Shown in pieces: positions 6,877 through 64,000 of a stretch of DNA of 64,000 nucleotides. The DNA comes from Harriotta raleighana. Its lineage: Eukaryota. A program made the translations under genes and the position numbers. The stretch spans positions 21,338,244-21,402,243 of the forward strand of contig JBNZDD010013732.1 of NCBI GenBank assembly GCA_050575255.1. The letters are read 5' to 3'. Position 1 is the first letter of the stretch. Every line of letters starts with the position of its first letter. The notes below the pieces were generated by a model. The model saw nothing but the letters and a program-made list of their open reading frames with translations. It ran no database searches and was not told the origin of the DNA.

Positions 6877-7050
6877 CGGTCACTTCAATCCACGACTGTT
6901 TGTGGGACACTGCAGTGCGCAACTGGCTGCCGCGTTTTGCCCACAAATATACAGTCAATTCACTTTACAGTATATTATGTGAAGTGCTTTGAGACATGTA
7001 GAAGACGCAAAAAGCTTATATCAAATGCAAGGCTTATTGTTATTGTTATT
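6877..7050 (+). mobile_element. 5'-truncated Deu-type SINE
   Basis: Body gtgggacactgcagtgcgcaactggctgccgcgtt and tail aaatgcaagg plus ATT-type repeat; near-identical to 15137-15308. Confidence 0.9.
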
Positions 7051-14972: not shown

Positions 14973-15308
14973 TTTGAAAAGTCACAGAGCTCAGTGGTTA
15001 GAGCACTCACCTTACGTGCCTTACAAGCATGAGACCTGTGTTCGAATCCAGGCAGATCAGGGCGAAACCTTGGGCAAGTTTCCTTACTCCACATGCCTAT
15101 TAATAATCCCTCAAAAAAAAACATAATAATAAAATTGGTCATTTTCAATCCACGACTGTTTGTGGGACACTGCTGTGCGCAATTGGCTGCCGCGTTCCGC
15201 CCACAAATATACAGTCAATTCACTTTACAGTATATTCTGTGAAGCACTTTGGGACGTTGATAAGATGTGAAAAGCGCTATATCAAATGCAAGGATTATTA
15301 TTATTATA
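14973..15308 (+). mobile_element. Near full-length tRNA-derived Deu-type SINE
   Basis: A-box-like agctcagtggttagagc, B-box gttcgaatcc at 15040-15049, Deu-like core and (ATT)n tail. Confidence 0.93.
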
Positions 15309-19083: not shown

Positions 19084-20644
19084 CTTAGTTTGGTTGAGAA
19101 AGAGCGAAGCTAGTGAACTGGAATAACAACAACAAAATTACATTTGTAAAGCGCCTTTAATATTAAATTTGTTGTTGTTGTAAATAGTAATGCTCCTTTC
19201 TTGTCATTCAAAGCCTGTGAGTTAATGTCAGGTTTAAAATTCAGTGCACATTTCTTGCTCAGAAATATAACATTTTACCACTGTCAAATGTAGTGACTGT
19301 ATATTTGTAAGCAAATGTAGGAGCACATTTGCTCCAAGCAAGTTCCACTAATAACCAAAAAGTAAATAACCAATGTATCTAGAGGATTGTTGGCGAAGAC
19401 ATAAAGAGAAACTCCTTTCTTTGTTTTTGTAGTACTGTACCTTTCCCTACCCCATCCTTCCACCGTTCCTAGCTGTGTGTTACGGTCAGCTCTGTGAAGT
19501 GCTTTGATACACCCCCGATATGAAAGGCGATGATTAAATATAAAACTGCTGTTATTCTTTGGATGAGGGAGTGCTTTGTTCAATGGATACTTGGGAATGT
19601 TATGATTATGTTAATTTAAAGATCATTATATCGCTGACAGTGGGATGTGGATTATATTTTGTTTCTCTCAAATCAACTGCTGTTAGTCCTGTGAGGTTGC
19701 TCTTGCCTCATTCCAGATACAGCTATCCACACACTTGAAAATTCCCTTTACAAGAGGAAATTTTCAATTCACAGGTTATTTCAAATGCCGAATGAATTAT
19801 TGAGCTGCTGTAAATATACCGTTTCATGACTCCATACAAAGAGAAATTGAAATGCATTGCCAAATTTACTGTCAATCATTGCACAGAAACAAACACTGCT
19901 GCAGTACAACCTCATAAAGCAGCAATTGGAAAGGTTAAAGCAACTCAGTTTGCAATGTTGTAACTCTGATAAATTACATGTGATAACATCCTTTTATCAA
20001 AACAGAATCTATCAGAATTCCTTTTTACCTAAGAGCATCGTAACAGTGAAACAGCTCGACACCAACCACTTAAATTGTTAGAAAAAGGAGCACTTCATCT
20101 TATTGAAAGGAACAGGAATATTCATTATTTTACCACAAATAAAATCCTTGGTCATGTCTCCTGAATCACGCGTTACTCCAATGTAATGTGAATCCAGTTT
20201 ATAACTTTGCATTCTTTGGCTCCTCACTTAAAACAAAAACTTTCAAGCTATTTGTCATAGGTGCATTTCTTTTTTTTCCACAAATTAATGTTGTCAAATT
20301 ATTTTGCTAATTTTCTCCACAATGGAATAAGTTGATTCTGCTTGTTGTTGAACAAGTTGCCCACTCATTCCGCCCAAGTGGCCGTTGTTCTTGTATGAAC
20401 CTTGGCAGAGTGTCGGCAGGTCATTAGATTCTTGAAGGTATCACACCTGAGTCTGACCTCTTCACAACTGCTGTCACTATTAGAGGGTGCTTTAGAGGGA
20501 CCTCAGAAGTCTAGGGCCAATTTTATTTCCTATTCAACCCCAGCCGAAACCAGCAAAAATCAGCATGGGGGAATTCAAACTAGTATATTCCTGGATGTTC
20601 CATTCACACTATTGGAGCTGCCCTACACACATTTCTGAGTTATA

Positions 20645-21286
20645 CAGTAAAACCCCATTTATCTAGCACCCATGGGACCTGGACAGTGGCGGTTAAATGG
20701 TTTTCCGGTTGAACGGATTTTTAAAAATGTTTTTAAAAAATTTAAAATTAAATATTCTTTTAACATACCATATTAATAACAGGCTAAATAATAACAGATA
20801 ATAACACTATTGTATGGATATTTATTGTAAATGTTGTACCCTGTACCATATAAATAATACAGTAAATACAGTAATGACTGATACCATAATAACAGAATAT
20901 TGTATGGCTATTTTATTGTAAATGTTAATACTATATAAATAATAGACCAAATGCAGTAATAACAGATACTATAATAACAGAATATTGTATTAGTACTTTA
21001 TTATTTATACTTAACTTTGCAGCATTGAGGAGAAATCAAAACGGCAAAATGGCGACTTTTAATAAAAAACGGCAGACATTTCAATGGAGCAGGAGCGAAT
21101 TTAGACGCGATTAGCGGCCAGCAGAGTACCTCCACCAATAATCGCGTGCCACAATCGATTCATTAAATGCATCATCACTATTTTGCAGGATAACTTCCGA
21201 TTTATCGAATTGGGACTTTTTTTTTCGAGGTTCCAGTTCAAAGGGTTTTCCGGTTCACCGAGTCACGGATAAACAAGGTTTTACTG
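20645..21286 (+). mobile_element. Non-autonomous Tc1/mariner-type (Tigger/pogo-like) MITE, copy 1
   Basis: Termini TA|CAGTAAAACCCCATTTATC and GATAAACAAGGTTTTACTG|TA; AT-rich internal repeats (aataacag...attgta). Confidence 0.88.
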
Positions 21287-21600
21287 TAATAATAATAATG
21301 CTTGCATTTGATATAGTGCTTTTTACGCCTTCCAGACGTCTTAAAGTGCTTCACAGAATATACTGTGAAGTGAATTAACTGTATATTTTGTAGGAGAAAC
21401 GCAGCAGCCAATTGAGTACAGAAGTGTCCCACAAACAATCATGAATGAAGTGACCAAATCATTTTGTTTTTTGGAGGGGTTATTATCAGGCATGTGGAGT
21501 AAGAAAACTTGTCCAAGGTTTTTTATTGCCTGGAATCCAACCCAGGTCTCTCGCTTACCAGAGGAGTGCTCTAACCACTGAGCTACAGGACTGCTACATT
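21287..21600 (-). mobile_element. Near full-length Deu-type SINE
   Basis: Reverse complement of the 14973 family, with head ctctaaccactgagctacagga. Its tail abuts the MITE. Confidence 0.92.
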
Positions 21601-24600: not shown

Positions 24601-27498
24601 GCCACTGGCATTAATTAAAATAAACTAAAGGGCAGAATAAGATAAAATGTACATTCTGTCACATTGAAGGTTTCTGAAGAACCTTACAAGCATTTTGCTC
24701 TGTATTACTAAGCTTTGGTTCTTACTAGAATTCTTGATTTGTTTTTTTTTTAGTCTCATCGAATCTTTCCATGGGTGTCTGAAACCCCACATGCTTCAAT
24801 GTTATAAAATAAAAAAATGACAATTTTTCCTCTATTCTCCCCTAAATGTGCTGACTCTTTACTGAGACTTCAATGGATATGCACAACTGTCGTCTCCTAT
24901 GGAACTCAAATTGTGAACCACAGAAACAAATGTAAATCAAGCACAAAATGTCTGCCAGTATACCAGTACGTTGTAACACCAGTGGAATGGTGGGGGAAAT
25001 TTGTACCCATGGCTACTTTATGTACACAGTCTGTTATGTTCTCAAAAGCTCCTTCTATCATTTTGTCAGTACTCAAAAATACAGGACTCATCACCACTGT
25101 GCCAAATACTGGTGAAACTCAGGCTTTTTCTTGTGAATCTTCACAAATCATTTAACAGGATTCCTTGTTGAAACCTGTTTAATGGTATGAAGGCAAGGCA
25201 CTGCGTATCAGAGAGTAAGTCAAACAGAGAGATAGCACAAGGGAAAATCAACTGAAAAGGTACAAGATTAACAACCGGTAACTTTTATCTGTAGTGTATT
25301 CCACTCTAAACTTATATTATGTGCTCTAATCCAAATTACTTATATCAAAATTTTATTTCAAGTCTATTAAGAGGATAAATGTAAGAACCAGAAGAATATT
25401 TTAGATGTGATCTTCTCATAACATTGCATCTCATCTTTCAAATTGCACAATCCTACAATTTACAGTTGTTTCTATTATGTGTACAATCCACAGCTAAAGG
25501 TAATACAGTGTGACATGGATTTTTAGACTAATTCAAAGACTTGCTTTTGGTCCAGCATTTCAGTCATCTATTAAAGTTATTCAAAAGATTTCTGAGCAAA
25601 CATCATCCCACCTTGTTCATTTCCATTCTCGGTGATGCTTTGGAGCTAACGAAGGATTATATTGTGATCCACCATGTCTTAAAAAGAAGTATTTATAGAG
25701 CAAATTTCATCCACTGCAGCTAATATAGTTAACCTTGGCATCACCTATCCACTACTTCTTGACTAATCCAATTTTCCTTTTTATTTTTTACAACCTTGGT
25801 GGTGTCCTGACTGTGGGTCTTGGCCTTTCACCTCTATTTGTCAATAAATGCAACTCCAACTAATACATTAAATGGGATTTCTTTATGTCAAATGGATAGG
25901 TAACTGTTAACACAATCAATGGAGTACACAACTAAAGAGTGGTTCAAAGCAGGTCAACATCGAGTCTTATTTTAATGACAGATTGGAAGAATGTAGAAAC
26001 ATCTGAAAAGGGTCTGTAAGCATTCCAGTGGTAATCTTCAAAGTTTTTACAAGATTTAGAAGAACACGTGAAAATAGACCAAGGAAAAAAACACAAGAAA
26101 TATATTTACTTCTAATGACAAAGAGGGATTTAATGTACCCCTCCCATGATTAGTTGTATCTGACAGCTAGACACTCAAAATTACCAGTATTGCTAATGTT
26201 TGGACGCCACACACATTGAAACATTAACTGCAAGATCTGGTCACCTTGGCATTATAAAGAATAATTTAACCAAAATGGACAACTTTAATAATGGCCAATT
26301 CATAAATGAAACCAAGTAGGTAAATTCAGGATTATACTTCTCTAGTAAAGTGACGGAAAAGCAACCCACCACCTACACTGCCCCCCCACCTGTGCCGAAA
26401 GGTGTTGATCATTGTAAAATATTATAATAATACATTTTACTAGTATATCTTGTGGTTTTACACAGTAATTAATTGCCCTAAACTTTGAGATAAACGGGTA
26501 TATCATATGGCACGCTGATAAATCCTATAATTATCTACACTTTTCGATCATCAGGTAATATAATGCAGGCCATAAGAGCAAATCGTGACCCATTTTTGAG
26601 CCTTTATTTATTTTGTAAATGTAACTGGCGATCTAAAACTTTACTTCATATATAGTTTGAAATCAGAAAATGAATCCAAGAGGCAGATGAATAGAAAGCA
26701 GATCTAACAATTGCTTTTTTTTCCAACAGACCAGGCCGATTTAATCTTGCTAAGTATATAAAGTCAGCGAACAAGGCTCACAGCTTGTGATCATCCTATA
26801 ATGTGGGAAGGCTCAAGGCAATTGTGAACAATTAATACAATTGAAATTGCTGCATTTCAGAAACCTATTTAAACCCTTCAATCATACTTTGTGGATGTCC
26901 TAAACAGTGGAACTCTTAATATACACTTACAATCTTACAATCCAGCAATCGTGTCTAAAATAGTTTGTAAAATAGCCTGCCACAAAAATACTAATTTATT
27001 CTATTTTTTTCACGTGTCATAAACATGCTGAAATGTGTCTGGAAGAGAAAATGTAAATTTCACTCCTGAAGTGATAATTTTAGCAAATGCTTGTGATGCT
27101 AAGTTACAAATATATAAGGCAATTGAAGAAATATCCCCACAAGTTGTCCTTATTTCTTAACTAAAAAAGGAATCCTGTACTTGAAAATTTGTACACATGA
27201 CTCTGATTGCAGGTTACAAAACTACAATAGGATATAGTGCCTCAAGAAATTAGTTGAAGCAATCATTCTGGTAAATATTCAGTATTTCGTAGCACAGTAA
27301 ACATTTGTCTAAATAAATAAACACAGGAAGAGCCAAATACTAGATTTAACCCATCTTTCCACTGCATTATTTACTGCCTTCCTTTTAGCTTCATTGATAG
27401 CAAGTGAGCTCTTGGTTTCCAATGTACAGTACTATCCTCCAGGCAAATGCCATATATGTAAATGTTTCTGAATTACCTAACCTATATTTCTTAAAATA

Positions 27499-28116
27499 TA
27501 GTAAAAGCCCGTTTATCTGTGACCCGATGAATCGGAAGACCTGTATAACTGGCACGTCAAAAAAAAAAATCCCAATTCGATAAACCGGAAATTATCCAAC
27601 AGAATAGAGATGGCACATTTAATGAATCGATTGTCACACGTGAGTGCTGCACAGGTATGTCGGCTTGCCACTAGGGGAACCTGAAAATCACCCTGCTGTT
27701 TTATTTCCTCCCGTGGTGGCCGCCAATGCAGAAGTTATGTATGAAAAATAAAGTACTAATACAATATTGTGTTATTATCGTATCTGTTATTACTGTATTT
27801 AATTTATTATTTATATGGTACAGTGTACAACATTTACAAAAGTATCAATACAATATTCTATTATTACAGTATCTGTTATTACTGTATTTAGTCTTATTTA
27901 TATGGTTCAGTGTACAACATTTACAATAAAATACCCATACAATATTCTGTTATTATCTGTCATTATTTAGTTTATTATTAATATGGTATATGTTAAAAGA
28001 ATTGTTAATTTAATGTTATTATTTTTATTTTTATTTTTCAAAACTGTACATGCCGCCAAGCCATTTAACCGGCTCTGGCCAGGTCCCGTGGATGCCGGAT
28101 AAACAGGCTTTTACTG
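27499..28116 (-). mobile_element. Tc1/mariner-type MITE, copy 2 (opposite orientation)
   Basis: TA|TAGTAAAAGCCCGTTTATC...GATAAACAGGCTTTTACTG|TA; the interior is the reverse complement of copy 1. Confidence 0.88.
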
Positions 28117-28224
28117 TATTACTCTTTGGGTATATTTAAAGTAGTGATGAGCATTCTATCTTCTTCTGGTAGAACAATTGATTGTCTCACACTACAACTG
28201 AAGGGCAACAACCTAAAGCCTGCA

Positions 28225-44249: not shown

Positions 44250-44482
44250 AAGAAACTCCCTTCTCTTTTTGAACAGTGGCATGGGATAAAACTAGTCATT
44301 TACTTCACGGCTGTTTGTGCATATTGGCTGTATGTTCACTTACATATACATGGGTGGGAAGAAACTCCCTTCTCTTTTTGAACAGTGGCATGGGATAAAA
44401 CTAGTCATTTACTTCACGGCTGTTTGTGGGACATGGCTTTGTGCATATTGGCTGTATGTTCACTTACATATACATGGGTGGG
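44250..44482 (+). repeat. Tandem duplication, 109 bp + 124 bp
   Basis: The units start aagaaactcccttctc at 44250 and 44359 and are identical except for a 15-bp indel. Confidence 0.93.
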
Positions 44483-47750: not shown

Positions 47751-47955
47751 CCCATTTAGCTTTGTGAAGTACTTTCAGAGGTTCTCCGAGTATGAAATTT
47801 GTAACATAAATATAAGCTGTTGCTATTCGAGAATTTCATATGAAGACAAAGTGTAACACATGATCCAAATACTACTGGAACAAAGGCCATGAACATTGCA
47901 TTGATAGTTTTAAGTCTGAAACAAACAGCAGAAACCAAAAGAATGATAGCTATTA

Positions 47956-48309
47956 CCATAAAACCTCATTTATCCGTGACTCGATCAACCGGAAAACCCG
48001 TTCAACTGCCATCTCAAAAAAAAAAGTCCAGATTCGATGAACCGGAAATTATCCGTCAAATAGTGATGACGCTTTTAATGAATCGATTGTCGCACGTGAG
48101 TACTGGTACAGGTACTCGCGGCTGGCCGCTAGTCGCGTTTTTTTTTAAGCTCTGTTGGGTGAGGGCTGCCATTGTGAAGATAAGTATACACAATAAAGAA
48201 CTAATAAAATATTCTGTTATTATTTAGTCTATTATTAATATGGTATGTGTTAAAATATTTTTTTATTTTGGCCAGGTCCCGTGGGTGCCAGATAAACGGG
48301 GTTTTATTG
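47956..48309 (-). mobile_element. Tc1/mariner-type MITE, copy 3 (internally deleted)
   Basis: ccataaaacctcatttatccgtgactcg...gataaacggggttttattg|TA; collinear with 27499-28116. Confidence 0.85.
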
Positions 48310-49219
48310 TATTACCATTACATGAAATATAAGAAGAGGAATGTTAACTTAAAAGAACATGTAAAGGCCAGTGGAGACCATCCAAATTACCAGGTTTGCG
48401 ATATCTGTACATATTACAATTTTAAATAATTAGAAATTCTTCATTATGCCTAGTTTTCCAGTACTACAACTGGCATTATATCACATGGAAGTGAAAGTCA
48501 CTTTTGAGAATAAAAACTTGAGGAAACAGTCACATATAAAACTAGTCCACATGTCTGCAATTTCACTCCTAAAAGAGTTACTTGTAATTTCCTGTATGGC
48601 CTACCATAAGGACCCAGTGATGGAGCTCCATAAATACCATTAACGTTTTATGGTTTCTACATAGACCCTGTTGAAATATGTCATTATTGAAAGGTATTTC
48701 ATGCTACTAATTCTAAGAGGCAGAATCCAGAAAAAGAAAAGCAATATGCAGCAAGAAGTTGCTTTCTAATAGCTGCTTGTCTGATTGTCACAAATGCATG
48801 TTGACATTTATTTACAATATTTATACAGAATAAAACACATCAAGACATTAGGAAAACGCCTTGTGTCAAAAGATTTATTCCAGCACTGCCTGAGTTGGTT
48901 AATTCATACGTGGGTCCTGCAAAGAAAATTGAGTATGGGGATCAAAGAGTCCTACATTTACTTTTAAATGAAACAGTTTTCCTTTGTTTTGGGAATTTTT
49001 TTTCTGATTCAAATTCTTTAGAATTATTATTCATGCCTTTCCGCCCATGAGATTGGCCGGGCACCCATGAAGACATAGGATCCAATGACATTTCCACAGA
49101 AGAGGCCCCAAGGTATCAGGTACATAAGCCATAATGAGTTGCTGCTTATAGGAGCTATCAAATATTAACAATAACTTCACCATACTGAAAAAAAATGGAG
49201 AAAAAGTTATGAATTCAAG

Positions 49220-49483
49220 AGAGAAACCTGGGTTCTATTCCCTTCAAGGTAAAAACCTTGGGCAAGTTTTCTTACTCCACGTGCCTGAGAAGAATTACCC
49301 CTCAAAAATAATAAATTGGTCACTTCAATCCACGACTGTTTGTGGGACACTGCCGTGCGCAATTGACTGCTGTGTTTTGCCCACAAATACACAGTCAATT
49401 CACTTTACAATATTTTCTGTGAGCTGGTTTGTGACGTTTAGAAGACATGAAAAGCGCTATATTAAATGCAAGGATTATTATTT
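49220..49483 (+). mobile_element. Deu-type SINE lacking the A box
   Basis: aaccttgggcaagttttcttactcc...gtgggacactgccgtgcgcaattg...aaatgcaaggattattatt. Confidence 0.9.
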
Positions 49484-50421: not shown

Positions 50422-50610
50422 ATAATAATACCTAAAAAAAACACAATAATAATATTGGTTATTTCAATCCACAATTGATTGTGGGCACTGCTGTGCACAA
50501 TTGGCTGCTGCGTTTAGCCCACAAATATACAGTCAATTCACTTTACAATATATTCTATGAAGTGCTTCGAGACATCTAGAAGACGTGAAAAGTGCTATAT
50601 CAAATGCAAG
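50422..50610 (+). mobile_element. 3' half of a Deu-type SINE
   Basis: gctgtgcacaattggctgctgcg...aagtgctatatcaaatgcaag. Confidence 0.88.
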
Positions 50611-52879
50611 CTGCTCATGGAAACCAAATCCCCCATGCGAATACTAATCAAAGTGCACTTGCCATCTTTGAAGACTGGTCTCTGTATTTATGATGGATGG
50701 GAACTGAGACTGAATAAGAATTATCCTTCCAAAATGATGAATCCCCAGGTTTACCTTGATGGAAATAGACCAATTCCACCAATATACTGATTATGATTTT
50801 AAAAAACTACCTCTCCCTCCCCAATCCCCACCCAACCCTCACCTTCCTCCTTGCTTGCAATCAACTCCATCTTTGTGCTCAGAGACATAATCTTATGCTA
50901 CACAACAAGTTGCACTTATATAGTGGCCTCCACTCAGGGTAATGTCTCACAGCACTTAAATGCTGTTGCCACCTCAGAGATACAAAAACACGGCTGAGAT
51001 GAAAATAATGGCCACCAATTTGAAAGCACCTCCTTATCAAACCCCTGACAGCCTTTGGACAGGTTACACCGTTCCTCTCAGGATTTTCCGACCTATTTCC
51101 TTCAGCACTCTGCTCCATTAATAAACAGATCTTTAATATGCAGCATCAATAGATACAAATTGACACAAAAGTCAATGTATAAATGTAAATTTGTATTGTA
51201 ATTAGCATTGTATTAGTGGAGAAAATGGCTCTAGTAAATAAATGACAATACTGTACCAGGGTTAAGTGTAATACTGTTGTATTAATCAATACTATGAAAA
51301 ACAATATTTTTGGGAAGGAGAAATGGGGCCAATGTCATTCAAGGAAGAACAAGCATGAGAGGTAACTGAAGAAAATTGAAACAAGTGAAAGGAAGACAAC
51401 AAACGTAATAAACTTTACTACAAAAATATGGGAATGATGTTGATATGAGGCAAATGTTACTCCAGGAAGACACAAACTGGCTAGTTTGCAGTGGAACTGC
51501 CTTCATGTTGTGTACTGGTATAGGATGTCATGTTATGACTTATTGCACGTCAAGCGCTCTGAGACACCATCCGATATGGAGGGCGCTATATAAATGCAAG
51601 TTGTTGTTTGTTGCCTTAAAAATAGGTTCTTCAAGTGATTTTCATACACAGCCGGAATCTGTTGAGCCAAAGTTAGCAGTAGTGGTGAGGAACATCGTTT
51701 TGGAGGCACGTTTGTTAGGAATAATAAACCTATTAATAAGCAGTGTAACAGGCTGGAAACTGCTGGTCAACAAAGATCTATTTGCAAATGCCTCCGGCTT
51801 TGTTGAATTAAGAAATATTATTGTGCTTTGAGGAGGTTTATGGTTTTCACCTGCAGTGAGTTACAGTACAATACCAGATTTAAAACAACCCATACATTGT
51901 GTAGTTGAAGCCTGTTAATTGGGACCCCCTGGTGTAAATGAAATAGTCCGATTTATCAGATCATTCCCCATCAAGCAAAACCCATCAGTGCTGATTTAAA
52001 TTGCGAATCAATTAGTGCCTGTGAAAATGTACCCATTAACCATTAACAGGCATCAAGTGTAATCATACACTGGGCTTCCCTGTGCCGCTACAGAATTCAG
52101 CAAATCTGTCTGGATTGTGTTCCATCACTTTGATCTGTATTGGCCTGATGTTTTTCACATCATTTCAAAGACTACAGTGACTAGGGATAAGACAAAAAAT
52201 TATTATTTGATGAGAAAACATTTTCCTCTCATTCTTCCCATACTGTTGACAAACTCATAGTGATTTTTAAATCCCATTCACAAGGGTTGATGATGAGAAT
52301 CAACCGTTTTAAAGGCTCAGTGTTGTCCGGAATGTTCTGGCTTCCAGCCCTGAAATTCGCACAAACAGGAACTAGGAAGTCTGCCTAAAATATAAGGACC
52401 ATTTCCAGGCCCAAAATATGATGGTTACATGGAACATAAAACCAAATACTTAAACATCTGCAAAAGAAAAAATAAAGTAGAAATAAATTATGAAATGACT
52501 TTTGGGATTGTAACTTGCCCAGGACAGCAGATCGTACCAGTATAGTGTTCCCTTGTCCAAAATCCAGCTAAAGTACATAAATCAAATCTGAGACATATTT
52601 TATTGCACCAAGGCAAAGCTGCATGTATGCCACTATTTGTGCTATGAATGTAGTTTATTGCCAGTGCAAATGGCAGACAGATCCTTCTTGTGTAGCCAAT
52701 GATAATAACCTGTTATGACTTGTAGCTGTCAAGACTTTTAGATAAAGATTCATCTGCTATATGCCATTGCAACAACAACTTGTACTTACAGTATAAAGCT
52801 CCCACAGACTAGAATCTAAGAGTGCTTCAAAGAATGACTCACCTCCCCAATGTCCTTGACTGCAATTCATTGGATACAA

Positions 52880-53959: not shown

Positions 53960-55537
53960 GTGTCAAAGGCCATGGGTTAAGGATTCAATCACATTAATGA
54001 AAAAGCATTTATAAGGAAGCACTCATAGGTAAAAAATTATATACATCACTGGCTGACAATCAAATTTACTGCAGCACTCAAGACATGTCAAAGTTATTGT
54101 TTAGGGGGCAATTCATAGCAAACACATGTCAGAATGTTGGCATATATTGAAAGAATGTGGCTCTTTTTAGTTTACTTTCTTTCAAAGGTGGTTCACTGAA
54201 AACATTTAAAACATTGACAAAATGATGGATGTTGTGTGGCTAAATGGTAAGCAATTGTTGAAACTGAAACTTTTCCAACAGGAAACAAACAGCTACTTCA
54301 CACTACATCCATCACTAATACATTCAGTCCATTGTAAAATGAGTCTGCAGTGTCAAACAAAAACAGCCTTATTCCCCACAAGAATATAAATGCTGTCTGA
54401 TAGCTCTGTGCAGTCATAATCAAGTTGCCAGCAACTTCTGAGCACCAGTGAGTGTTGTTGTCCTTTCACAGACTCTGTTGGCATCATTATTTTAAGTATA
54501 GCAGTAGAGTCTGGGTAATTTAGGAGTTGTACATAAATCCGTTGGTATTTTAATCTCATCTATTCTTATGAAGGTGCAACTCTCTGGTACCTCATTGTGT
54601 TGCCCATCCCTTACTTGTGATCCTGGACAGTGAAAGTCTCCAATAAATTTGACTTTGGATGCATCGCAGGCAAGACTGACTTGAGTCCCGGCTTTAGGTT
54701 ACTTATGTGTCCTTCCAGCAGGGGCCGCTGGAGAGAGATCATAAGCAGGAAACCTGGTTCATTTTCCCCATCCCAAGTCCAGGGGCTTTTAAGGATGACT
54801 GTAACATCATTCCTGTTGCCCCATCTGAGAAGAGCTAACTCAGCACAGACTGGGGATTAAACCTGGAGCCTTCCTGATTTGTGTGGATTAGTTTCATATA
54901 AAATCATGAAAAAGGTTATTTTATGGGGTGGACACTAGAGACAGAATCATAAACAGCGTGGGTTGTAATAAAGGCTGCAGTAAATTTGAGAATGGTGTAA
55001 CAATTACTTACTCTGCTAGAAATAGTTTGAGATTGCACATTTCCTTCTTCCTGTGAGAGCTCCTGAATGGAAGCTTCATACATACATAAAGGTACTATTT
55101 AGTTGAATAAAGCAATTCAGCATCTATCTAAATGTAATAAAAGAAAACCACAAGGAACACCATTAATACGTTATTGGTGCATAGCCAATTCTTTGCTTAC
55201 TTTTTTTGTGGGCCTGATTTTATCTCATTCAATAATCATTCCAGCAGAGGGCTCTCTGCCATCCAAGACAATCTCTTTCCTGCTTTCTTTTTTAAAAAAT
55301 AAGCATTTTCAATCTCTACAGTATTTAAAGATTTTTTTTTTTTTTTTTACACACCATAACATCCCATGTTACAAAGCAAAAGTGCAGCACAAATAGAGAC
55401 AAAGCAGGATTAAAAAGCTTTGGTGTGAATTTTTGCAAGTTAGTTTCTAGCGCACCATCTCAATTTGGGCAAAACTGCAAATGCTTCCCTTTAATTGGGG
55501 CACTGTGTAATTTACAACACCACTGCGCAAAGGATAT
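53960..55537 (-). other. LRMDA: U12-type (minor spliceosome) AT-AC intron of LRMDA, 1578 bp
   Basis: On the minus strand the 5' end reads CAA|ATATCCTTTG, the branch site TCCTTAAC lies at 53983-53976, and the 3' end reads ...CCTTTGACAC|ATAACA. The phase-0 join gives NKNQ|ITEL in frame. Confidence 0.95.
54620..54895 (-). mobile_element. Ancient SINE remnant inside the U12 intron
   Basis: The minus strand reads caggaaggctccaggtttaatccccagtctgtgctgagttagct (B-box-like sequence plus core). Confidence 0.55.
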
Positions 55538-55664
55538 TTGATTCTTGTTGATTGTCAGAGTATGAAGGTGTGGTAACCTGGGCAACTGGAGGTCATTTGT
55601 GAGGAGATTGTTGTCCAGAATCAGCTCTTCTAGGCAGCTGAATGCTTCCAGTCCTTCCAATGAC
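55538..55664 (-). CDS. LRMDA: LRMDA (C10orf11) internal coding exon, leucine-rich repeats, 127 bp
   Basis: Translates (R)[42 protein letters not shown], matching my recollection of human LRMDA ([43 protein letters not shown]). Acceptor is ttgttgttgcAG; the donor is the U12 consensus ATATCCTTT. Confidence 0.95.
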
Positions 55665-58289
55665 CTGCAACAACAAGGGAACAGGAAAATGATACGCCAC
55701 TAAATCAGGAAGGCCATTATGCACGGAAATAAATATTTCAACCTTCCCTTTCACGAGCTGGAAAGTTTTGGTTTGGTCTTGACAAGCGAGTGAATGACAA
55801 GAATTAGTGGCAGGGAGAGCGCTGGCACAGGCTCACATCTTTCACACTCTGGCAGGATGAAGGATGGGGGTCACTTAGTGAGTAGCCAGGATCTAAAACA
55901 AAAGGCTTCAGATATGGGGCCTACAGGATGAATTTGTCAATGTCTTGTGCCTTGAGGCACCCAGCCTTCCCTGACCCCAACCTTCATTCCCAAGATAAAT
56001 AACTCTGTCACAGTTCACCCTCATTCCCTGGACACAAATTTAACTTGTCATCCATCATTCAGTGCAAATATCATATTCTTAGCGCAGCTAATGAATCCAG
56101 TTTTATCATCACGCTCACAAGTGAGCACCGTTATGTGACGAGAAGAAGCGAAAGAATAAAATTAACGTGATATGCTTGTTACATAAGTGGGGGGGGGGGG
56201 AGCTTCACGCTTCTCACAGACTGCACCTGGAAATCAAAGCAAGGCAGGAAATGAATAGGGCCGCGGGAGCAAATAGCCCGTGCCCTGGTGCATTTAACCA
56301 CAAGAATACATATTGTTTCTGAATAATACTATGTAAATAGAATAATCTTATCATGAGAATCAGCAAATGGATTGTAACTGGCAAACTGGAAAAAAGGCAT
56401 ACATCTAAGTGCTTCAGGGGAAGCATAAAACAAAATGACAGAGCATGAAGTGGGACAAAGGCCTCGAAACACTAGAGGGAGTTGCCTATTGAAAGAGCCG
56501 GGCTCACACCAAAAGCTTGGCTGAACACTCAAAGACAGAGGGAGAGAAAAAAAAATCTCCACAAATCCCCTTACACCTGTCTGATTTTGATAATTTTGCC
56601 ATGTAATGTTATTAGCTGCTCAGTTAAAGGGAGATGCATTACACAAGGGTTTCCTTATTAATTGTTGTTTTCATGTCATCAGCACAGTGTGCATTTCATG
56701 ATTTAATCAGCTAAATTCACAACTGTGAGCCAAGGGGAAGGCAGAGGGGGGAGAAGAAGGGAATGGTGGGTGTTGACAGTCTCCAACATAAATCTGTCTG
56801 TTGTTTAAATCTCTTTTCTGTTCTGTTCTTCCATGATGTTATGCACACTTTCACCCCGCACTTGAGATGACTAGTGAGTGTAGAAACAGCATTTTGTAAT
56901 AGTTTGGTTTAGAAAGCTGACGAGCTTTGTTACGATTGCTTAGTGCACTTCGCTATTCACACAGCTCTAATGACCTGAGAGCTGCCATTATCTTACTCAC
57001 AGGTACCATCTCCTTCACTTCACTGGGGCTCACACACTCCTCCCAGAGGAGCCTCAATACAGCCAGATTTTCATTGCAATTTCCAAAGTCACATCAAGAT
57101 GACAAAACATCAGAATGCATTTCACTCTTCCAATTCAAATGGAAAGAACTTTAAGTTTCCACTGTAATTAACCCTATCCTCGTTAAGATAATTATGATCA
57201 AGATCCCCTGTCATACCTAATATCCCAGAATTATTGCCTATGGCTCACACTTCACCCTCATTATCTTACAAAAATGTTGCACACAACAGGCATTGGCAAG
57301 GAGCCCCCCTGCTGAGTGCAGAGGAGGATTGCTTTTGAAGGGAGGGGGCGATGTGTTATAAGGATCGGCTTTACCACACTAGTGTGAAAAAGCAATGTTT
57401 AGATTCAAACAAAGCAGCACAGACTGGGGAGTGACAGGCAAATTGACATGCTGTTCAGAGGGCAAATGATAAATGTTTGATGAATTGGCAAATGCTGAAG
57501 GAGTGATGGGCTTCATATGTGCATAATGGACTAGCTGCCTCTCAGTTCTGATTGCCTGCCAAGATAAGAGACCATAATGAATGGGCGAGCAAAGCCCTGC
57601 CATAAAAAGTAGGATTCAACTGGTTTTAATAAACTTAATAAAAAGTGCAGAAGCAAGAGACGGCAGTTGAAATGAGATGTGAGAAAAGAGTAAGATTAGA
57701 TCTACTTTAAAATCTTGACGGCAAAGTTGCAGGAGAAGGAAGTGGGAATAAAAACAAAGTTCTGTCACAGGGACTGTGAGACAGAGTGCCTCCGGTGCAC
57801 TGGGTGAATTATAGACTGCCTCTCAAGATTCACAGCTCTTCGTGGTAGGAGGTTAATATTCTCACATGTCATTAGGTCTGCTGGCTCCACTGATGGCTCA
57901 TTGAATCAGGCAGCAAATTATTTCCTCATGCTAGAAAGGACACCACACTTCAAAGGGAAGGAGCCCGGGTCAGGCTGGCTCTACAGTTTGATTAATGACT
58001 CAGGATCAGCAGTGGTTGCCTGTAGGTATGAATGTGACTGAGGCTTTTGACAACACTGACTTTAGAGCAGGGCTTGACCCGGGCCCTTACTAACTTTGTT
58101 TCTAACATTGCTTCTGACTGACCTGATGGGGCCTGTCAGTTAAGTTTATGACCTTTTATGCCATGTTACCAGGGATGGGAGTCGTTGTCTGCACAGCTGG
58201 ATACCTATTTTCCCCTGAATGTTTAATTCCTCCACTAAACAAATCTTTGCTGTAGTGATTTCATGCAAAGTATTCAGATTTTGGATTTT

Positions 58290-58403
58290 GTTCCACCCAT
58301 GAAACACAGCCACGTTACAGTCTATTCGGTGAAGCGCTTTGAGATGTCTCAATGATGTGATAAGGCGCAATATCAATGCAAGAATTATCATCATCATTAT
58401 TAT
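58290..58403 (+). mobile_element. SINE/L2 3' tail
   Basis: gtgaagcgctttgagatgtc...aggcgcaatatcaatgcaagaattatcatcatcatt. Confidence 0.75.
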
Positions 58404-59857
58404 TTCCTGCATAATTCATTTCACAAGCCACTTGTGATTTCATGTACTGTGCAACGTGCTTTTTTTCCCTCCCCTTGTCTACTGCAACCAGTGTGTTTGA
58501 GCAGCGGACTAATGCACCAAGGTATCACTGAGCAACCGTCACTTCCATTCCTTCTGATCAACCGGGTTTGATGGATGTCATTGACACAACTGTGCCAATG
58601 GCCTCTAGTAAACCACTCCCTGTATCAGACCACATCAAAGCTCTTCAACTACTTCCCCCTCCCCCACACCCACCTACAAAGGAGAGCCTTTAAAACCTAA
58701 TGGGAGTGTGATTTCACAAAACAGAAACTCAAGCAAAAAACAAAGGCTAAATTACATTTCACATCAGTAACTGCACTTTCAGACTTTTAACTCCCTGAGG
58801 CCAGAAACAATCTCAATGTTTGAACAAGAAGTTGAAATAAAAATGGCCGATTACTTAATCGTGCTTGGGCCTCAGGCCTCAGCAGTAAAGAAGGGATTAA
58901 AGTCTCCACCACCTGGGCTGCCGATCTCCTGGGCCCCATTATCATCCCCTTATTCATTTTTTTTAGCCAACAGATTAAAATGCAAGTGCCACAATCTTTG
59001 ATCTTTCATTCACCGACACAAATCCAATGAAGCCTCTAACATTTTCTGCTGTGGTAATTAGTACTCATTAAAAGGTTTCCAGCAGCCTGGGCATTGTTTT
59101 TTTCCCAAAAGAAATTGCTTATACAAGTGCCTTATATCTTTCAAATGTACGCATCACTCACTTTCGTCTTTAGCTAATTCGTGTAGATCAAGTAGATTAG
59201 AGACTCCATTATTTTCAGAGACAAGGGAAACAACAGGTTTTCATAATCTATCTGACCTGAGGATGCAACAGCAGTCTGATCAGGATTTAAATGCATTATT
59301 ATTTCAGTCTGTTCTAATAGCCCTTTGATTTAGACATTTTGAGAATTCAGTTTTTGTTTGGAAAAACCTCAGAGAATTTTTTTGTATATGAATCCATCTA
59401 TTGAAACCTCATTCCCATTTGTACATCTAAATAATACATTTAAAGATGGTTACATATTTTAAATAATTCATCTGACGATTCACTCTTCTGAGTATCCCCA
59501 GTCCTGGTGCACACAATAAATTCTTTCCCATTTAACATTTAACAGTTCTATGAACTACTGTGTAAATAATAAGCATGTGAAGGGTGTTATTTACTGTTGT
59601 TCATTGCATTACTTTCTTTTTATTTCCTTAGGAATATTAAAGGCAATGATTGGTCATTTAAGTCTGGTCACATTACAGAATTTATGAAAATGGTAAATCA
59701 AACACAATGCATACACAGAGATGTAACAAACACCAATTGTGTGTTTAAGAATGCAAGCGTATCATGATATCATGTTTTAGCCTTGGAACAATTTTTTTGC
59801 TGACATAAAATAAGAACAGTTGAATTTGTGCAGTGATTAGCTGAACTATTTATTTGT

Positions 59858-60070
59858 GCAAAACACAAAATACTACAGATGCTGGGAATCTGAAACAAAA
59901 ACAGAAGTTGCTGGGGAAACTCAGCAGGTCAGGCAAGAAAAGCGAGTCAACGTTGAGAATTGAGTTCTGACGAAAGGTCATGGACCTGAAACGTTGACTT
60001 GCTTTCCTTTCTCCATGGATGCTGCCTGACCTGCTGAGTTTCCCCAGCAACTTCTGCTTTTCTTTTTATT
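59858..60070. mobile_element. Penelope-like inverted-repeat element (two head-to-head terminal fragments)
   Basis: Perfect 34-bp inverted arms at 59902-59935 and 60023-60056. The sequence aaatactacagatgctgggaatctgaaac resembles the abundant chondrichthyan Penelope-type repeat (from memory). Confidence 0.75.
59962..60000 (+). ncRNA. Minimal type I hammerhead ribozyme motif (Penelope-associated)
   Basis: Stem I GAGTT/GACTT, core CTGACGA, one extra A, stem II AGGTC-ATG-GACCT, GAAA, palindromic ACGT stem III, predicted GUU cleavage site. Confidence 0.65.
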
Positions 60071-60149
60071 TAATCAGTTGTATGTGTTGAGTTATCTGAT
60101 CTTGGGATAGGCATCTGATATCAGCAAAAGGCAAAGTAAAATCAACCAG

Positions 60150-60375
60150 GATTATTGCTCCTAGCTGGAAGGTAAGATTAGGCAAGGTTTGTAATACATG
60201 GGGAATAGAGTCATCTGTGGTGGAGCAGGCCACCGAGAATTACATTGAGTGTTACTATATGAAAACAGACTACCCATCCCAACTAGTCCATGATGGTGTT
60301 TATATTCTAAATGAACCCCTACCCCTCCAATTCCCCTGTTCTGTACCCCTCTATTTCCTTTTCCCTCATGTATGC
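60150..60375 (-). mobile_element. Degenerate CR1 3' end
   Basis: acagactacccatcccaactagtccatgatgg resembles the reverse complement of a CR1 3'UTR. Confidence 0.45.
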
Positions 60376-63300
60376 TCAATGGACAAAATGATCTCCCTGT
60401 TCTTAATTTCTTACAATCTTGAAACCTCTCCTGCAGACCTCATATGAAGATGTCAGGTAAGGGAGGGCAAGATCAGAATCAGCTGTGACATTCACCATCA
60501 AGGTTCAAACCTGAAAATTGCCCACTTGAGTGAGGTACGATAAGGCAACCCAATTGATACCATTCCAATTCAGCAGGAAAAAAAGATTCAAACACCTTCA
60601 GATGACGAGAGGAGGGCAGAAAATGTTAAGAGAGAAATGGAAAGGGATATAAATGAGAATGATTTTATGGAATTCTACACATTTAGCACAAACTGGCTTT
60701 TGCAAAGTCTGATAGATTTGTTTCACATTCGGAAGTGCGGCAGATGAAAAGCTTAGTGCATAGCTTTATTGCTACTCAGCACTCTCCAATTCTAAAAGGT
60801 TTGGCACAATAAGTTCAAAATGGCAACAAAGGAAATCTTGTCATCTTAAATCAAACATGCGCGATAAAAAAATTGAGGCAGAGGTACTGTCAATCGGCCA
60901 CTGCTTTGATATTAATAATCTCTAGTGAAATTCAGACAAAATATCAACACTAAGTTTTCACAGCTTCAGTCTAGCTCCAAATCAGGCTGGATATAAATCA
61001 AATACCAGCTCTCCCCACATCCAGTGAACTTTGTTTTCTTTACAGATAAATTGGTGTTTACAGCTTTCACCGATTAATGGCACTTCCTGATATCATTAAC
61101 ACCACATACCTAATCACCAGCATGCAGGATCTGCAATTAATGCACAACCTCCCCTAGCAATTAACGAGATAAATAAAATAACATTAAAATGTTCAAATAC
61201 ATTCTTTAAGTATAAAAAAATCAAATTCGTAAATCCAATATTGTGAAGGAACTGTTTGTTGCTAAACTGGGGCAGTATAATCTGCTGAAAGGAGGAGGTC
61301 TTGTGATTTCCATAGTCAGAAACCACACCTTATTGCTGCAGTTTTTAAAAAAAATGATACACATGCAATCTATCCCACTGTCTTGTCTCCCCACCCAAAA
61401 TGATATTGCTTCCATCTGTAAGCTTTCTACACACTACAGCCAATGACATTTGTAAAGTTTGATACAGTTTTAAACTTTTTAATTTTATTTTTGAGGAGAG
61501 GAAGATGAAAGGAAAACTGGGAACTTCTAATCCAATAATGCCTTCTTTCTTCATTCTTGTCCTTTTTGCCCAACAAAATATTTCTAAGTATGTACTGTAG
61601 TAACAGAATTTGAAAGCTGTGCATTTCAACAAAATCAAAATGACTACTTTCCATGTTCTGAGAATATTGCTGGAATGAGTCACAGTTTACCAAAGAAAGA
61701 ACAGCAGTAAAATATCCCTGTTAAGTTGAAAAGCAAGTCTCTCACAAGACCCAGCAGGCCGAAGCCAACCTTTTAAATTTGATCAGGCCAGATTGCTGTC
61801 AACATCATTAAGTGTTACTCGGCAGTCAATCCACTCAATGAAAAGTTTTCTTCATCGTGTAATGATCCAAAACTTTTAAGAATACCACATCAAAGCTGTG
61901 CTTTGGAGGATCTCCTCCCAAACCACTCTCTGATCTTGCTCATAAAAATGAAATACTCGCCTATAATTAGTTTTGCTGTTAAATGAATGTATTGTAGTCG
62001 TTAACAATGCCTCTGCTTTGTTAACTGTTCCCCCAGGTACATATCAACAGCCAAAACCCCAGTCAACAATGGGGAGGGGGTAGAGAAAGGAGGCGGAGAG
62101 ACAACAGTTGTTAGGTTACAAAACACAGACTTCTCTTTTGTTTATACAGCAGGGCTCATCCAAGGTTGCCCTTATGTTCACTATAAATACTGACTACTAT
62201 TAATTGCAAGATTTATCAGGCTCAAACAGCATGCCAGCAGCCCGTGCAGGGCTGCAAGAATTTCAAGAGTAAAATGAGGTGGAAATAATCAATAACATCT
62301 ACACTTGCAGAGATACTCAACACCTGCACTTTCATTACCAACACAAAATGTAATCTATTTTGTCAATATGGTTTAAAAATATATATGAAAAGGACACGAG
62401 AATGTCTGTGGGTGGAATGAAAAGAAAATAGATCAACCCTGCTTTACTGAAAAGACCGGCATACCCAGGCGTAGCATCTGAACTTAGAACAACCAACACT
62501 TCGCTGTACACTATAATTTGCTGTAATTGGTACATCATTATTTTTCTTCTTCAAGGGTCATTATAATTCAGCATCACAAAGTTGCCTTCAGATGAAGAAA
62601 GCAAGAATTATTTTCATATTACTGTAAAATGAAAAAGTATAACAGGGATAATGGAGCTTTTCTCTGGAACGTTAAGGTTTTATAAGGTTAATACTTTCAA
62701 TAAATGTACATTGACCTAATTTTTAAATGGTGCCATTTTCTACCATCAACTCTAGTGGGTAATGATCCAAATATAGAATGAATTTGAGAAATAACTTTAG
62801 CGAGTATCAATTTGGTGCACGCGCTCATACTGTTTGCGATGTGATTGGGAAATCACAGCAAAGTTACTGTTAGAACATTGAAAACTTCTTATTTTTAAAG
62901 TGCTGTTAATCAGTTTGCCTGGTCATAAGAAAATATATTTCAGGACTTCTGCAAATTAATTTCGTAGTAAATGAAACTGAAAATTGCTATAATTGTTAAG
63001 CGAGAAAGTGTCCTCTCTCTACAACTCATCTGCAAAAGATCTTTTGTCTGGTACCATTATGTGTCATCTTGGCTAAGACTCTTGCCTACCAAGGACATTT
63101 CAACTGTGCAGCAGGAGCCACATTGAGGATTAACCAGAGCGCTTTCTCAGGCTTTAAGAACTACAGTAAATCTTCAAACAATTTATCCAAACAAAACCCA
63201 ATGTGTGGAAAAAGACACTGGAAACAGATGAATAAGCAACATCAATTACCAGGGTTTGACCTTCGTGCCCCACACCATGGTACAGATTTCACACCAAATC

Positions 63301-64000
63301 GGAGCAGATTGAAGTTGACATGCCTGTAGTGAAAACACTGGCCCTCACAAGGTTCCACTCCACAATCGCACAGCCAGGGAAGGGGTCTGTGAACAGGCTG
63401 GTGAATAAGAAATCACGCATAATGTGCCTGGGTTTATTTTAAAGTGAACAAAATGGCTCAATTTGCGCACTTAGTCTGTAGAAATTGACCAGTCTGAGGT
63501 ACAAGAGGAACATCTATAAGGACAGGAGAAACTGTCTGTAAATAAGTACACACAAAATAAGGACAATGGAACTCTTCGAATGAGTTTTACACGATTTTAA
63601 CTCCCACCCCCAACATCTCCTGTTTACACCACTTGATGTAGTATAAATACAGGAAAGAGGACCCTGTCAACACTGTATATACAACACCATTATATATTCT
63701 AATACCAGTCTTCAGAGATGCAGCTTCTGTTTGGGTATCAGTACAGTTTATGATATACTATTGCCTGATTGCAAAATAAATCAAAGAATGAATTAGATTC
63801 TCAAGCTCCCTGGTCACATTATGTTTGAAGCTACAGTGTTGCTCCAAACAACTGTGATACTATCCGAGGATCGATTAATCAATTGAGAAAACAAAAGTAT
63901 ACATATTTTCAATGTATTTAGCAGTGAACACCCATTCAAATATTGCAAAATATATTAATTTTCTTGAATTGCCTCAGACACTAACTATGTATCAGACAGA

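Follow-up and report, generated by a model that had tools for sequence, protein, structure and literature searches.

The window, by which we mean the whole 64-kb stretch of DNA that was analysed, carries part of the LRMDA gene on its minus strand, with exons at 55666–55532, about 53959–53819 and 43341–43216. Identity to the Callorhinchus protein is 98% and 93% for the two outer exons, and for the middle exon the best matches (the 13 best of 28) carried the name LRMDA and came from rays, Callorhinchus milii and sharks; the window would accordingly derive from a cartilaginous fish, probably a chimaera. LRMDA residues 1–47 gave no good match within the window; with these residues falling outside it, the hammerhead motif treated here lies in an intron upstream of the first exon seen, and the insertion that holds the motif is located 4.2 kb upstream of the exon at 55532–55666. 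An earlier note on this DNA had placed the motif antisense to LRMDA, and the minus-strand position of the exons bears this out.

Four of the 24 listed sequencing runs were compared with a 1.2-kb stretch. One of these (X21) consists of fragmented poly(A) RNA of another species, of which 27% was read (13.9 million records), and the other three (X11, X15 and X19) consist of contigs. A unique intronic stretch 150 nt from the insertion (59498–59702) aligns at ~85% in the two most distant runs, X15 and X19, in which the neighbouring DNA does not align, and is a candidate conserved non-coding element. Beside the element on its other side, 60261–60383 and 60466–60547 are lower-copy repeat fragments with raised contig depth in X11, X15 and X19.

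Elsewhere in the window, tRNA-like heads scoring above the Rfam gathering score for tRNA occur at 21527–21587 (minus), 32022–32092 (minus) and 36091–36162 (plus), and dispersed repeat bodies joined to such heads lie near 6884–7042, 15144–15302, 31785–31964, 49304–49483 and 50462–50620; these repeats are likely tRNA-derived SINEs. A second dispersed family, present in both orientations and containing internal 89-nt AT-rich tandem units, occupies 20637–21303, 27497–28124 and 47939–48315. Near-identical adjacent duplications at 40302–40544 and 44250–44443 (98% and 92%), one of them with a single N between its copies, are possibly assembly artefacts; runs of N are found at 30440–30651, 40444 and 47320.

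Architecture and age of the insertion

The motif sits in a 209-nt insertion that consists of two 5′-truncated element ends joined head to head (Table 1), and the Penelope-type element was accordingly mapped to 59856–60064. The inverted arm matches the direct copy at 59990–60065 in 58 of 62 bases, with one 14-nt gap, which corresponds to an arm divergence of 6.5%. The 34 nt at the outer end of this arm have no partner on the right side. High paralogue depth starts at the bin 59851–91, and loose ends behind 60065 (372 reads in X21) and behind 60056 (108 contigs in X11) run into this 34-nt segment; because the paralogues cross 60065 into it, the segment represents the 3′ tail of the family. Similarly, the 14 bases that are missing from the inverted arm are carried by loose ends behind 59935 (586 reads in X21 and 69 contigs in X11), so that the gap is a deletion in the window copy.

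Table 1. Position and basis of the features making up the insertion and its hammerhead motif, with the nearest LRMDA exon
Feature	Position in window	Strand	Basis
LRMDA nearest coding exon, residues 48–92 of the Callorhinchus protein	55532–55666	−	tblastn, 97.8% over 45 aa
Target-site duplication, left copy, 7 nt (TTTATTT)	59849–59855		direct match at offset 216
Three-base spacer separating the duplication from family homology; either diverged or untemplated	59856–59858		family matches start at 59858–59860
34-nt one-sided tail, family 3′ extension on the inverted arm only	59859–59892	−	paralogue depth, loose ends
Element 3′ end in inverted, 5′-truncated form, lacking 14 internal nt and antisense to 59990–60065	59893–59954	−	
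Copy-specific junction filler linking the two truncated ends; may include G59962	59955–59961		
Direct 5′-truncated copy of the element 3′ end, beginning at the hammerhead, without tail	59962–60064	+	
Hammerhead stem I, 5′ strand	59962–59966	+	letters, fold
Catalytic box C3–A9 (CUGACGA, 59967–73) plus extra A59974	59967–59974	+	consensus CUGANGAH, PMC4209133 Fig. S3
Stem II, 5 bp with 3-nt loop	59975–59987	+	letters, fold
G12-A13-A14 (59988–90), palindromic ACGU (15.1–16.1, 59991–94) and U17 (59995)	59988–59995	+	numbering via PMC4209133
Hammerhead stem I, 3′ strand	59996–60000	+	letters, fold
Target-site duplication, right copy	60065–60071		direct match

At the junction between the arms, family matches stop before 59955 and resume at 59962–59964. 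The summed contig depth of X11 amounts to 5,758 in the bin 59933–73 versus 133,547 and 154,722 in the flanking bins, and paralogous contig pieces cover 59962/3–60065 in X11 and comparable ranges in X15 and X19. These data bear on the reading that the hairpin is itself a unit element (MITE-like or retrozyme-like, non-autonomous and copied whole) instead of a by-product of insertion. We consider this quite unlikely, since the arms are unequal, the tail is present on one side only, the depth at the X11 junction is more than 20-fold below that of the arms, and the listed joints vary from contig to contig. What such a unit would explain are the terminal inverted arms, the target duplication and the thousands of family contigs, and PLE-derived non-autonomous retrozymes are known from vertebrates, including one chondrichthyan (bioRxiv 10.64898/2026.07.22.740005, hereafter the retrozyme preprint); however, the tandem arrangement that the preprint describes as the defining trait of active retrozymes is absent here.

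The preferred reading, an insertion of two truncated ends, is in line with an apparent empty site. An X11 contig (record 1; 1,525 nt) aligns to 59406–59852 and 60110–60584 with 41 nt between both pieces versus 257 nt in the window and is thus 216 nt shorter, this empty site being a length-based call on one contig of a related species. Among direct matches at offsets 205–225, the longest was 7 nt at offset 216 (the runner-up being 6 nt at offset 220), and we read the 216-nt difference as the 209-nt insertion plus a 7-nt target duplication that is AT-rich and contains ATT. A further X11 contig of depth 9 covers the inner end of the left arm with letters that continue in the family antisense, and this contig, unlinked to the flanks, was taken as a paralogue. 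Judged by 22 differences from X11 in 447 positions of one flank and 62 in 475 of the other, and by the divergence of the arms, the insertion would be about as old as the split from the X11 species or somewhat younger.

The hammerhead motif and its repeat family

The letters that the earlier note had assigned to a hammerhead were confirmed base for base on the plus strand (59962–66, 59967–73, 59974, 59975–87, 59988–91, 59992–95 and 59996–60000), and by these letters the motif belongs with the minimal type I hammerheads of Penelope-like elements (PLEs). In agreement with that note, helix III is a loopless ACGU palindrome, and by analogy the cut is predicted after U59995, between 59995 and 59996. 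When 59955–60010 was folded alone, the pairs of stem I had probabilities of 0.67–0.97 and those of stem II of 0.98–1.0. The lone motif favours a rod fold in which G5–G8 is paired with CGUU, and the ACGU duplex contributes no more than –1.7 kcal/mol.

Two traits that the earlier note had suggested may reduce activity proved to be regular ones. The extra A59974 belongs to the PLE consensus given in PMC4209133 (CUGANGAH..GAAAN-palindrome-NUH), which lists the extra nucleotide as conserved and in which, counted by eye, 54 of the 56 published motifs carry it. GUU, a cleavable NUH site according to PMC3138052, is no peculiarity of the window copy either, with 15 of the same 56 motifs ending in ACGUU and the paralogue consensuses of X21 and X19 keeping the GUU site. 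As the extra A is part of the consensus and GUU is a family trait, neither counts as a defect. The true departure from the published consensus is one that the earlier note missed, as it missed the hairpin context: stem II pair 10.1–11.1 is A-U in the window copy, a form listed for 3 of the 56 motifs in PMC4209133, where the usual pair is a highly conserved G10.1–C11.1.

A descriptor comprising CUGANGA, an optional extra base, stem II of at least 4 bp, GAAA, a palindromic pair, UH and stem I of at least 3 bp, which is looser than the motif but was composed after the motif had been seen, matched the 64-kb window once, at the motif itself, and matched none of 400 simulated windows (order-3 Markov windows of 64 kb, both strands). 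Rfam returned six matches at E≤10 for 56000–64000 and three at gathering score for the whole window, with hammerhead families absent from both. The missing Rfam match, together with an isolated 39-mer that folds only modestly better than its shuffles (z –1.76), would be compatible with a chance match. We nevertheless hold chance to be extremely improbable, in view of the empty simulated windows, the location of the motif where a repeat of PLE architecture begins, its fit to the consensus published in PMC4209133, and one compensatory pair (10.1–11.1) in a paralogue consensus.

The family to which the motif belongs is high-copy in all four runs, with 7,081 reads of X21 and 5,672, 3,667 and 5,581 contigs of X11, X15 and X19, respectively, placed on the 1.2-kb stretch and with the depth concentrated at 59851–60065. 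The core GAAACGUU was found in the paralogue consensuses of X21 and X19 as well. In X21, the consensus of 531 paralogue reads that lie before 60003 and contain sequence across the predicted cut (built column-wise with an agreement of 0.57 and aligned by eye with a one-base offset) shows G-C at pair 10.1–11.1 versus A-U in the window, and leaves the other four stem II pairs, GAAA and CGUU unchanged. Position 59996 (position 1.1) is A and not G in 8,675 of a depth of 9,810 in X15 and in 26,032 of 62,049 in X19, and both G and A pair with U59966. This stem variation (one two-sided and one one-sided change, taken from the listed rows of the difference table) is suggestive in being consistent with hammerhead pairing.

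Five pairs had been claimed for stem I, and the letters and folds bear them out in the window copy, but the outer pair G59962–U60000 looks copy-specific. Because C is the base at 60000 in 887 of 957 and 1,041 of 1,154 X21 reads and family matches mostly start at 59963, stem I of the family probably consists of 4 bp.

The X21 run listed no pile-up of read ends at the motif and had zero depth on the unique flanks 59400–59809 and 60097–60260, both of which are weak evidence because the run holds fragmented poly(A) RNA of another species and was read for 27%. In a tally of change types relating to RNA editing, A>G/T>C changes were not in excess in the RNA run compared to the DNA runs. Separately, 36 X21 RNA reads with 23 starts, all in one direction, carry a joint of 59878 to 59964, in which a ~20-nt inverted tail is connected almost directly to stem I. 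This joint was absent from the three contig runs, and it probably derives from a transcribed paralogue in which the inverted arm is not long enough for blocking the hammerhead.

Family copies were found neither in viral contigs nor among phages and plasmids, and one search of prokaryote genomes yielded none. Three actinobacterial loci from a second prokaryote search were taken as chance matches, and three loci in metagenome contigs were rejected, as this GC-rich DNA shared only a 21-nt pattern and was otherwise unlike the family. The listings of a literature search showed no publication on the family, which may well be catalogued in Repbase or Dfam.

Within the 64-kb window, no second hammerhead motif was found by the descriptor, nor a second copy or a tandem array at the site. 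No RT or GIY-YIG frame was recognised by eye among the open frames of the window, and a truncated stub is not expected to retain such an ORF. A 71-codon open frame does run across the element on the LRMDA sense strand (59853–60065, minus). Searches with this frame produced two candidates among longer proteins, none at E≤10, and zero candidates among proteins of similar length; a single match among 1.84 billion representatives, a 675-aa tandem-repeat protein without pairwise alignment, was dismissed as a summed-repeat artefact. With no real relative in three protein searches, the frame is probably due to chance. On the plus strand, an ATG at 60019 opens a frame (60019–60065) that remains open through the tail when the left arm is read in element sense. 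By analogy with PLE ORFs, which are described as starting in the terminal repeat and extending into the tail (PMC3846280), this could be the start of the parent ORF; a protein search with the open frame of the element found nothing matching it.

Predicted folding and cleavage at the locus

When the inverted arm is present, 59990–60003 is predicted to pair with 59954–59941 (P 0.81–1.0), which would bury helix III, the scissile bond and the 3′ strand of stem I. Stems I and II form together with a probability of 0.11–0.61 when the arm is omitted, and its inclusion lowers this to between 3e-7 and 3e-12 for all six transcript ends tried; a hammerhead-compatible fold costs ~17 kcal/mol with the arm versus ~3 without. 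This probability falls when the transcript start is at or upstream of 59948. Plus-strand transcripts starting at or upstream of this position are therefore modelled to adopt the hairpin and not the ribozyme, and a transcript starting at 59949–59962 would escape the block. Folding during transcription should be of no help to the ribozyme, because the arm is transcribed first. For the minus strand, corresponding to the LRMDA pre-mRNA, only the hairpin is predicted and the ribozyme is absent.

According to these folding models, the window copy of the hammerhead is likely inactive where it stands, its cleavage site being occupied by the inverted arm of the same insertion. Cleavage as a dimer, which the earlier note had proposed, finds no support here, as the copy is solo in the window and the upstream arm is predicted to pair with its 3′ part. 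If the parent element was intact and in tandem, the motif would likely have acted there as a weak, protein-assisted or dimeric hammerhead.

An activity in trans could be envisaged if an antisense transcript started at the junction (59949–59962), or if a protein refolded the hairpin, so that the freed ACGU could find its pairing partner in another molecule or a paralogue, with a cut after U59995. All core bases are indeed intact, stems I and II do form at appreciable probabilities when the arm is left out, paralogous transcripts are abundant in X21, and the Anolis PLE hammerhead is reported to cleave, but only with its protein present (PMC11167929). We still regard such activity as decidedly unlikely in the face of the energetic cost imposed by the arm, the poor stability of the ACGU duplex and the preference of the lone motif for the rod. 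Moreover, in the assays described in PMC4209133 cleavage was weak for dimers and absent for single minimal motifs, the retrozyme preprint reports product from one of nine Xenopus dimer elements and none from the other eight, and the zero depth of X21 on the unique flanks adds weak evidence in the same direction.

The long hairpin around the motif reached a z of –11.8, with none of 200 shuffles equally stable, and its minus-strand counterpart is equally stable at –107 kcal/mol. The latter fold, and a top Rfam match to a microRNA precursor family (MIR6457), might suit a hairpin that has been domesticated as a regulator of LRMDA, acting on the sense pre-mRNA as a pre-miRNA, an endo-siRNA source, or an editing or splicing element. 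However, at 49.7 bits the MIR6457 match stays far below the gathering score (140) and is a generic-hairpin match, the insertion is missing from a related species (one X11 contig), the arms have decayed (4 mismatches plus the 14-nt gap), and the nearest coding exon in the window is 4.2 kb away, all of which makes domestication very improbable.

Origin of the insertion and comparison with known elements

Taken together, the locus most probably holds a minimal type I hammerhead within a 209-nt head-to-head hairpin insertion, likely a dead-on-arrival PLE stub, in which the ribozyme is predicted not to cut. Since the family was not linked to an RT or endonuclease in the searches made, the PLE identity rests on architecture.

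The most probable course of events can be pictured from the Anolis PLE protein (Poseidon_Ac or PAc), which is described as cutting both strands at ATT and as having two start points for reverse transcription, one at either boundary of the tail (PMC11167929). By analogy, a PLE endonuclease would have made a staggered cut in AT-rich intron DNA, and the two DNA ends would each have served as primer for reverse transcription, which would have begun at one or the other of two sites spaced by 34 nt. The resulting cDNAs would both have stopped after ~105–110 nt and would then have been joined by short filler. The insertion so formed lacks both coding capacity and a partner motif and carries its own predicted antisense blocker. 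The right cDNA spans the whole ribozyme and the left cDNA extends 6 nt past the scissile bond; because both arms read through this bond, the template RNA was likely uncut. In this respect the window copy agrees with the PAc result, as reported in PMC11167929, that uncut RNA serves as template and hammerhead cleavage is dispensable.

A more far-reaching proposal would be that twin priming by cartilaginous-fish PLEs builds such an off-switch systematically, in that the cDNAs tend to stop at the hammerhead and the arm covers the scissile bond in many copies. We rate this as unlikely. Were it true, it would explain how transcribed DNA tolerates thousands of ribozyme stubs whatever their orientation, it would provide genome-wide fossil proof of PLEs copying uncut RNA, and the stubs would constitute a large source of intronic double-stranded RNA. 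The significance of the locus would thus be greater if the blocking arm were systematic across the family; as it stands, the insertion is ordinary genomic debris of a known kind and of little significance. It does have didactic merit, as 216 bases suffice to show an empty site, the duplication, the tail and both truncated arms in clean form, and it is a warning for motif scans that a perfect core can be silenced by 15 bases immediately upstream.

With regard to the motif, the window copy resembles the minimal hammerheads of PLEs described by Cervera and De la Peña (2014; PMC4209133), sharing type I topology, CUGANGA plus the extra base, GAAA, a loopless palindromic helix III, an NUH site and a short stem I. 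Those hammerheads are reported to number thousands per genome in fishes and amphibians, most of them solo remnants tied to truncated PLEs, as is the window copy; cartilaginous fish are absent among the 56 motifs of that paper. Unlike the usual PLE motif in that description, the window copy has A-U at 10.1–11.1, a tolerated minority form, as well as a 5-bp stem II with a 3-nt loop and an antisense arm over the cleavage site.

Non-LTR retrozymes as portrayed in the retrozyme preprint are likewise non-coding, PLE-derived and equipped with a type I hammerhead, and the family of the window may be listed among those of the preprint. Unlike these retrozymes, which are head-to-tail tandems with a motif in every unit, the window holds a single head-to-head stub with one motif.

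The closest likeness in architecture is to the insertions of endonuclease-positive PLEs, for which PMC3846280 and PMC8557442 describe an inverted 5′-truncated copy, mostly head to head, and a one-sided tail of 30–40 bp. Both head-to-head inverted ends and a tail on one arm recur here, the tail measuring 34 nt, and the target duplication is 7 nt versus the 8–10 bp reported in rotifer PLEs. Unlike those insertions, both copies in the window have been cut to ~100 nt and lack coding sequence; shared with endonuclease-positive PLEs are the AT-rich target holding ATT and the position of the hammerhead upstream of the tail, in keeping with the mechanism put forward in PMC11167929.
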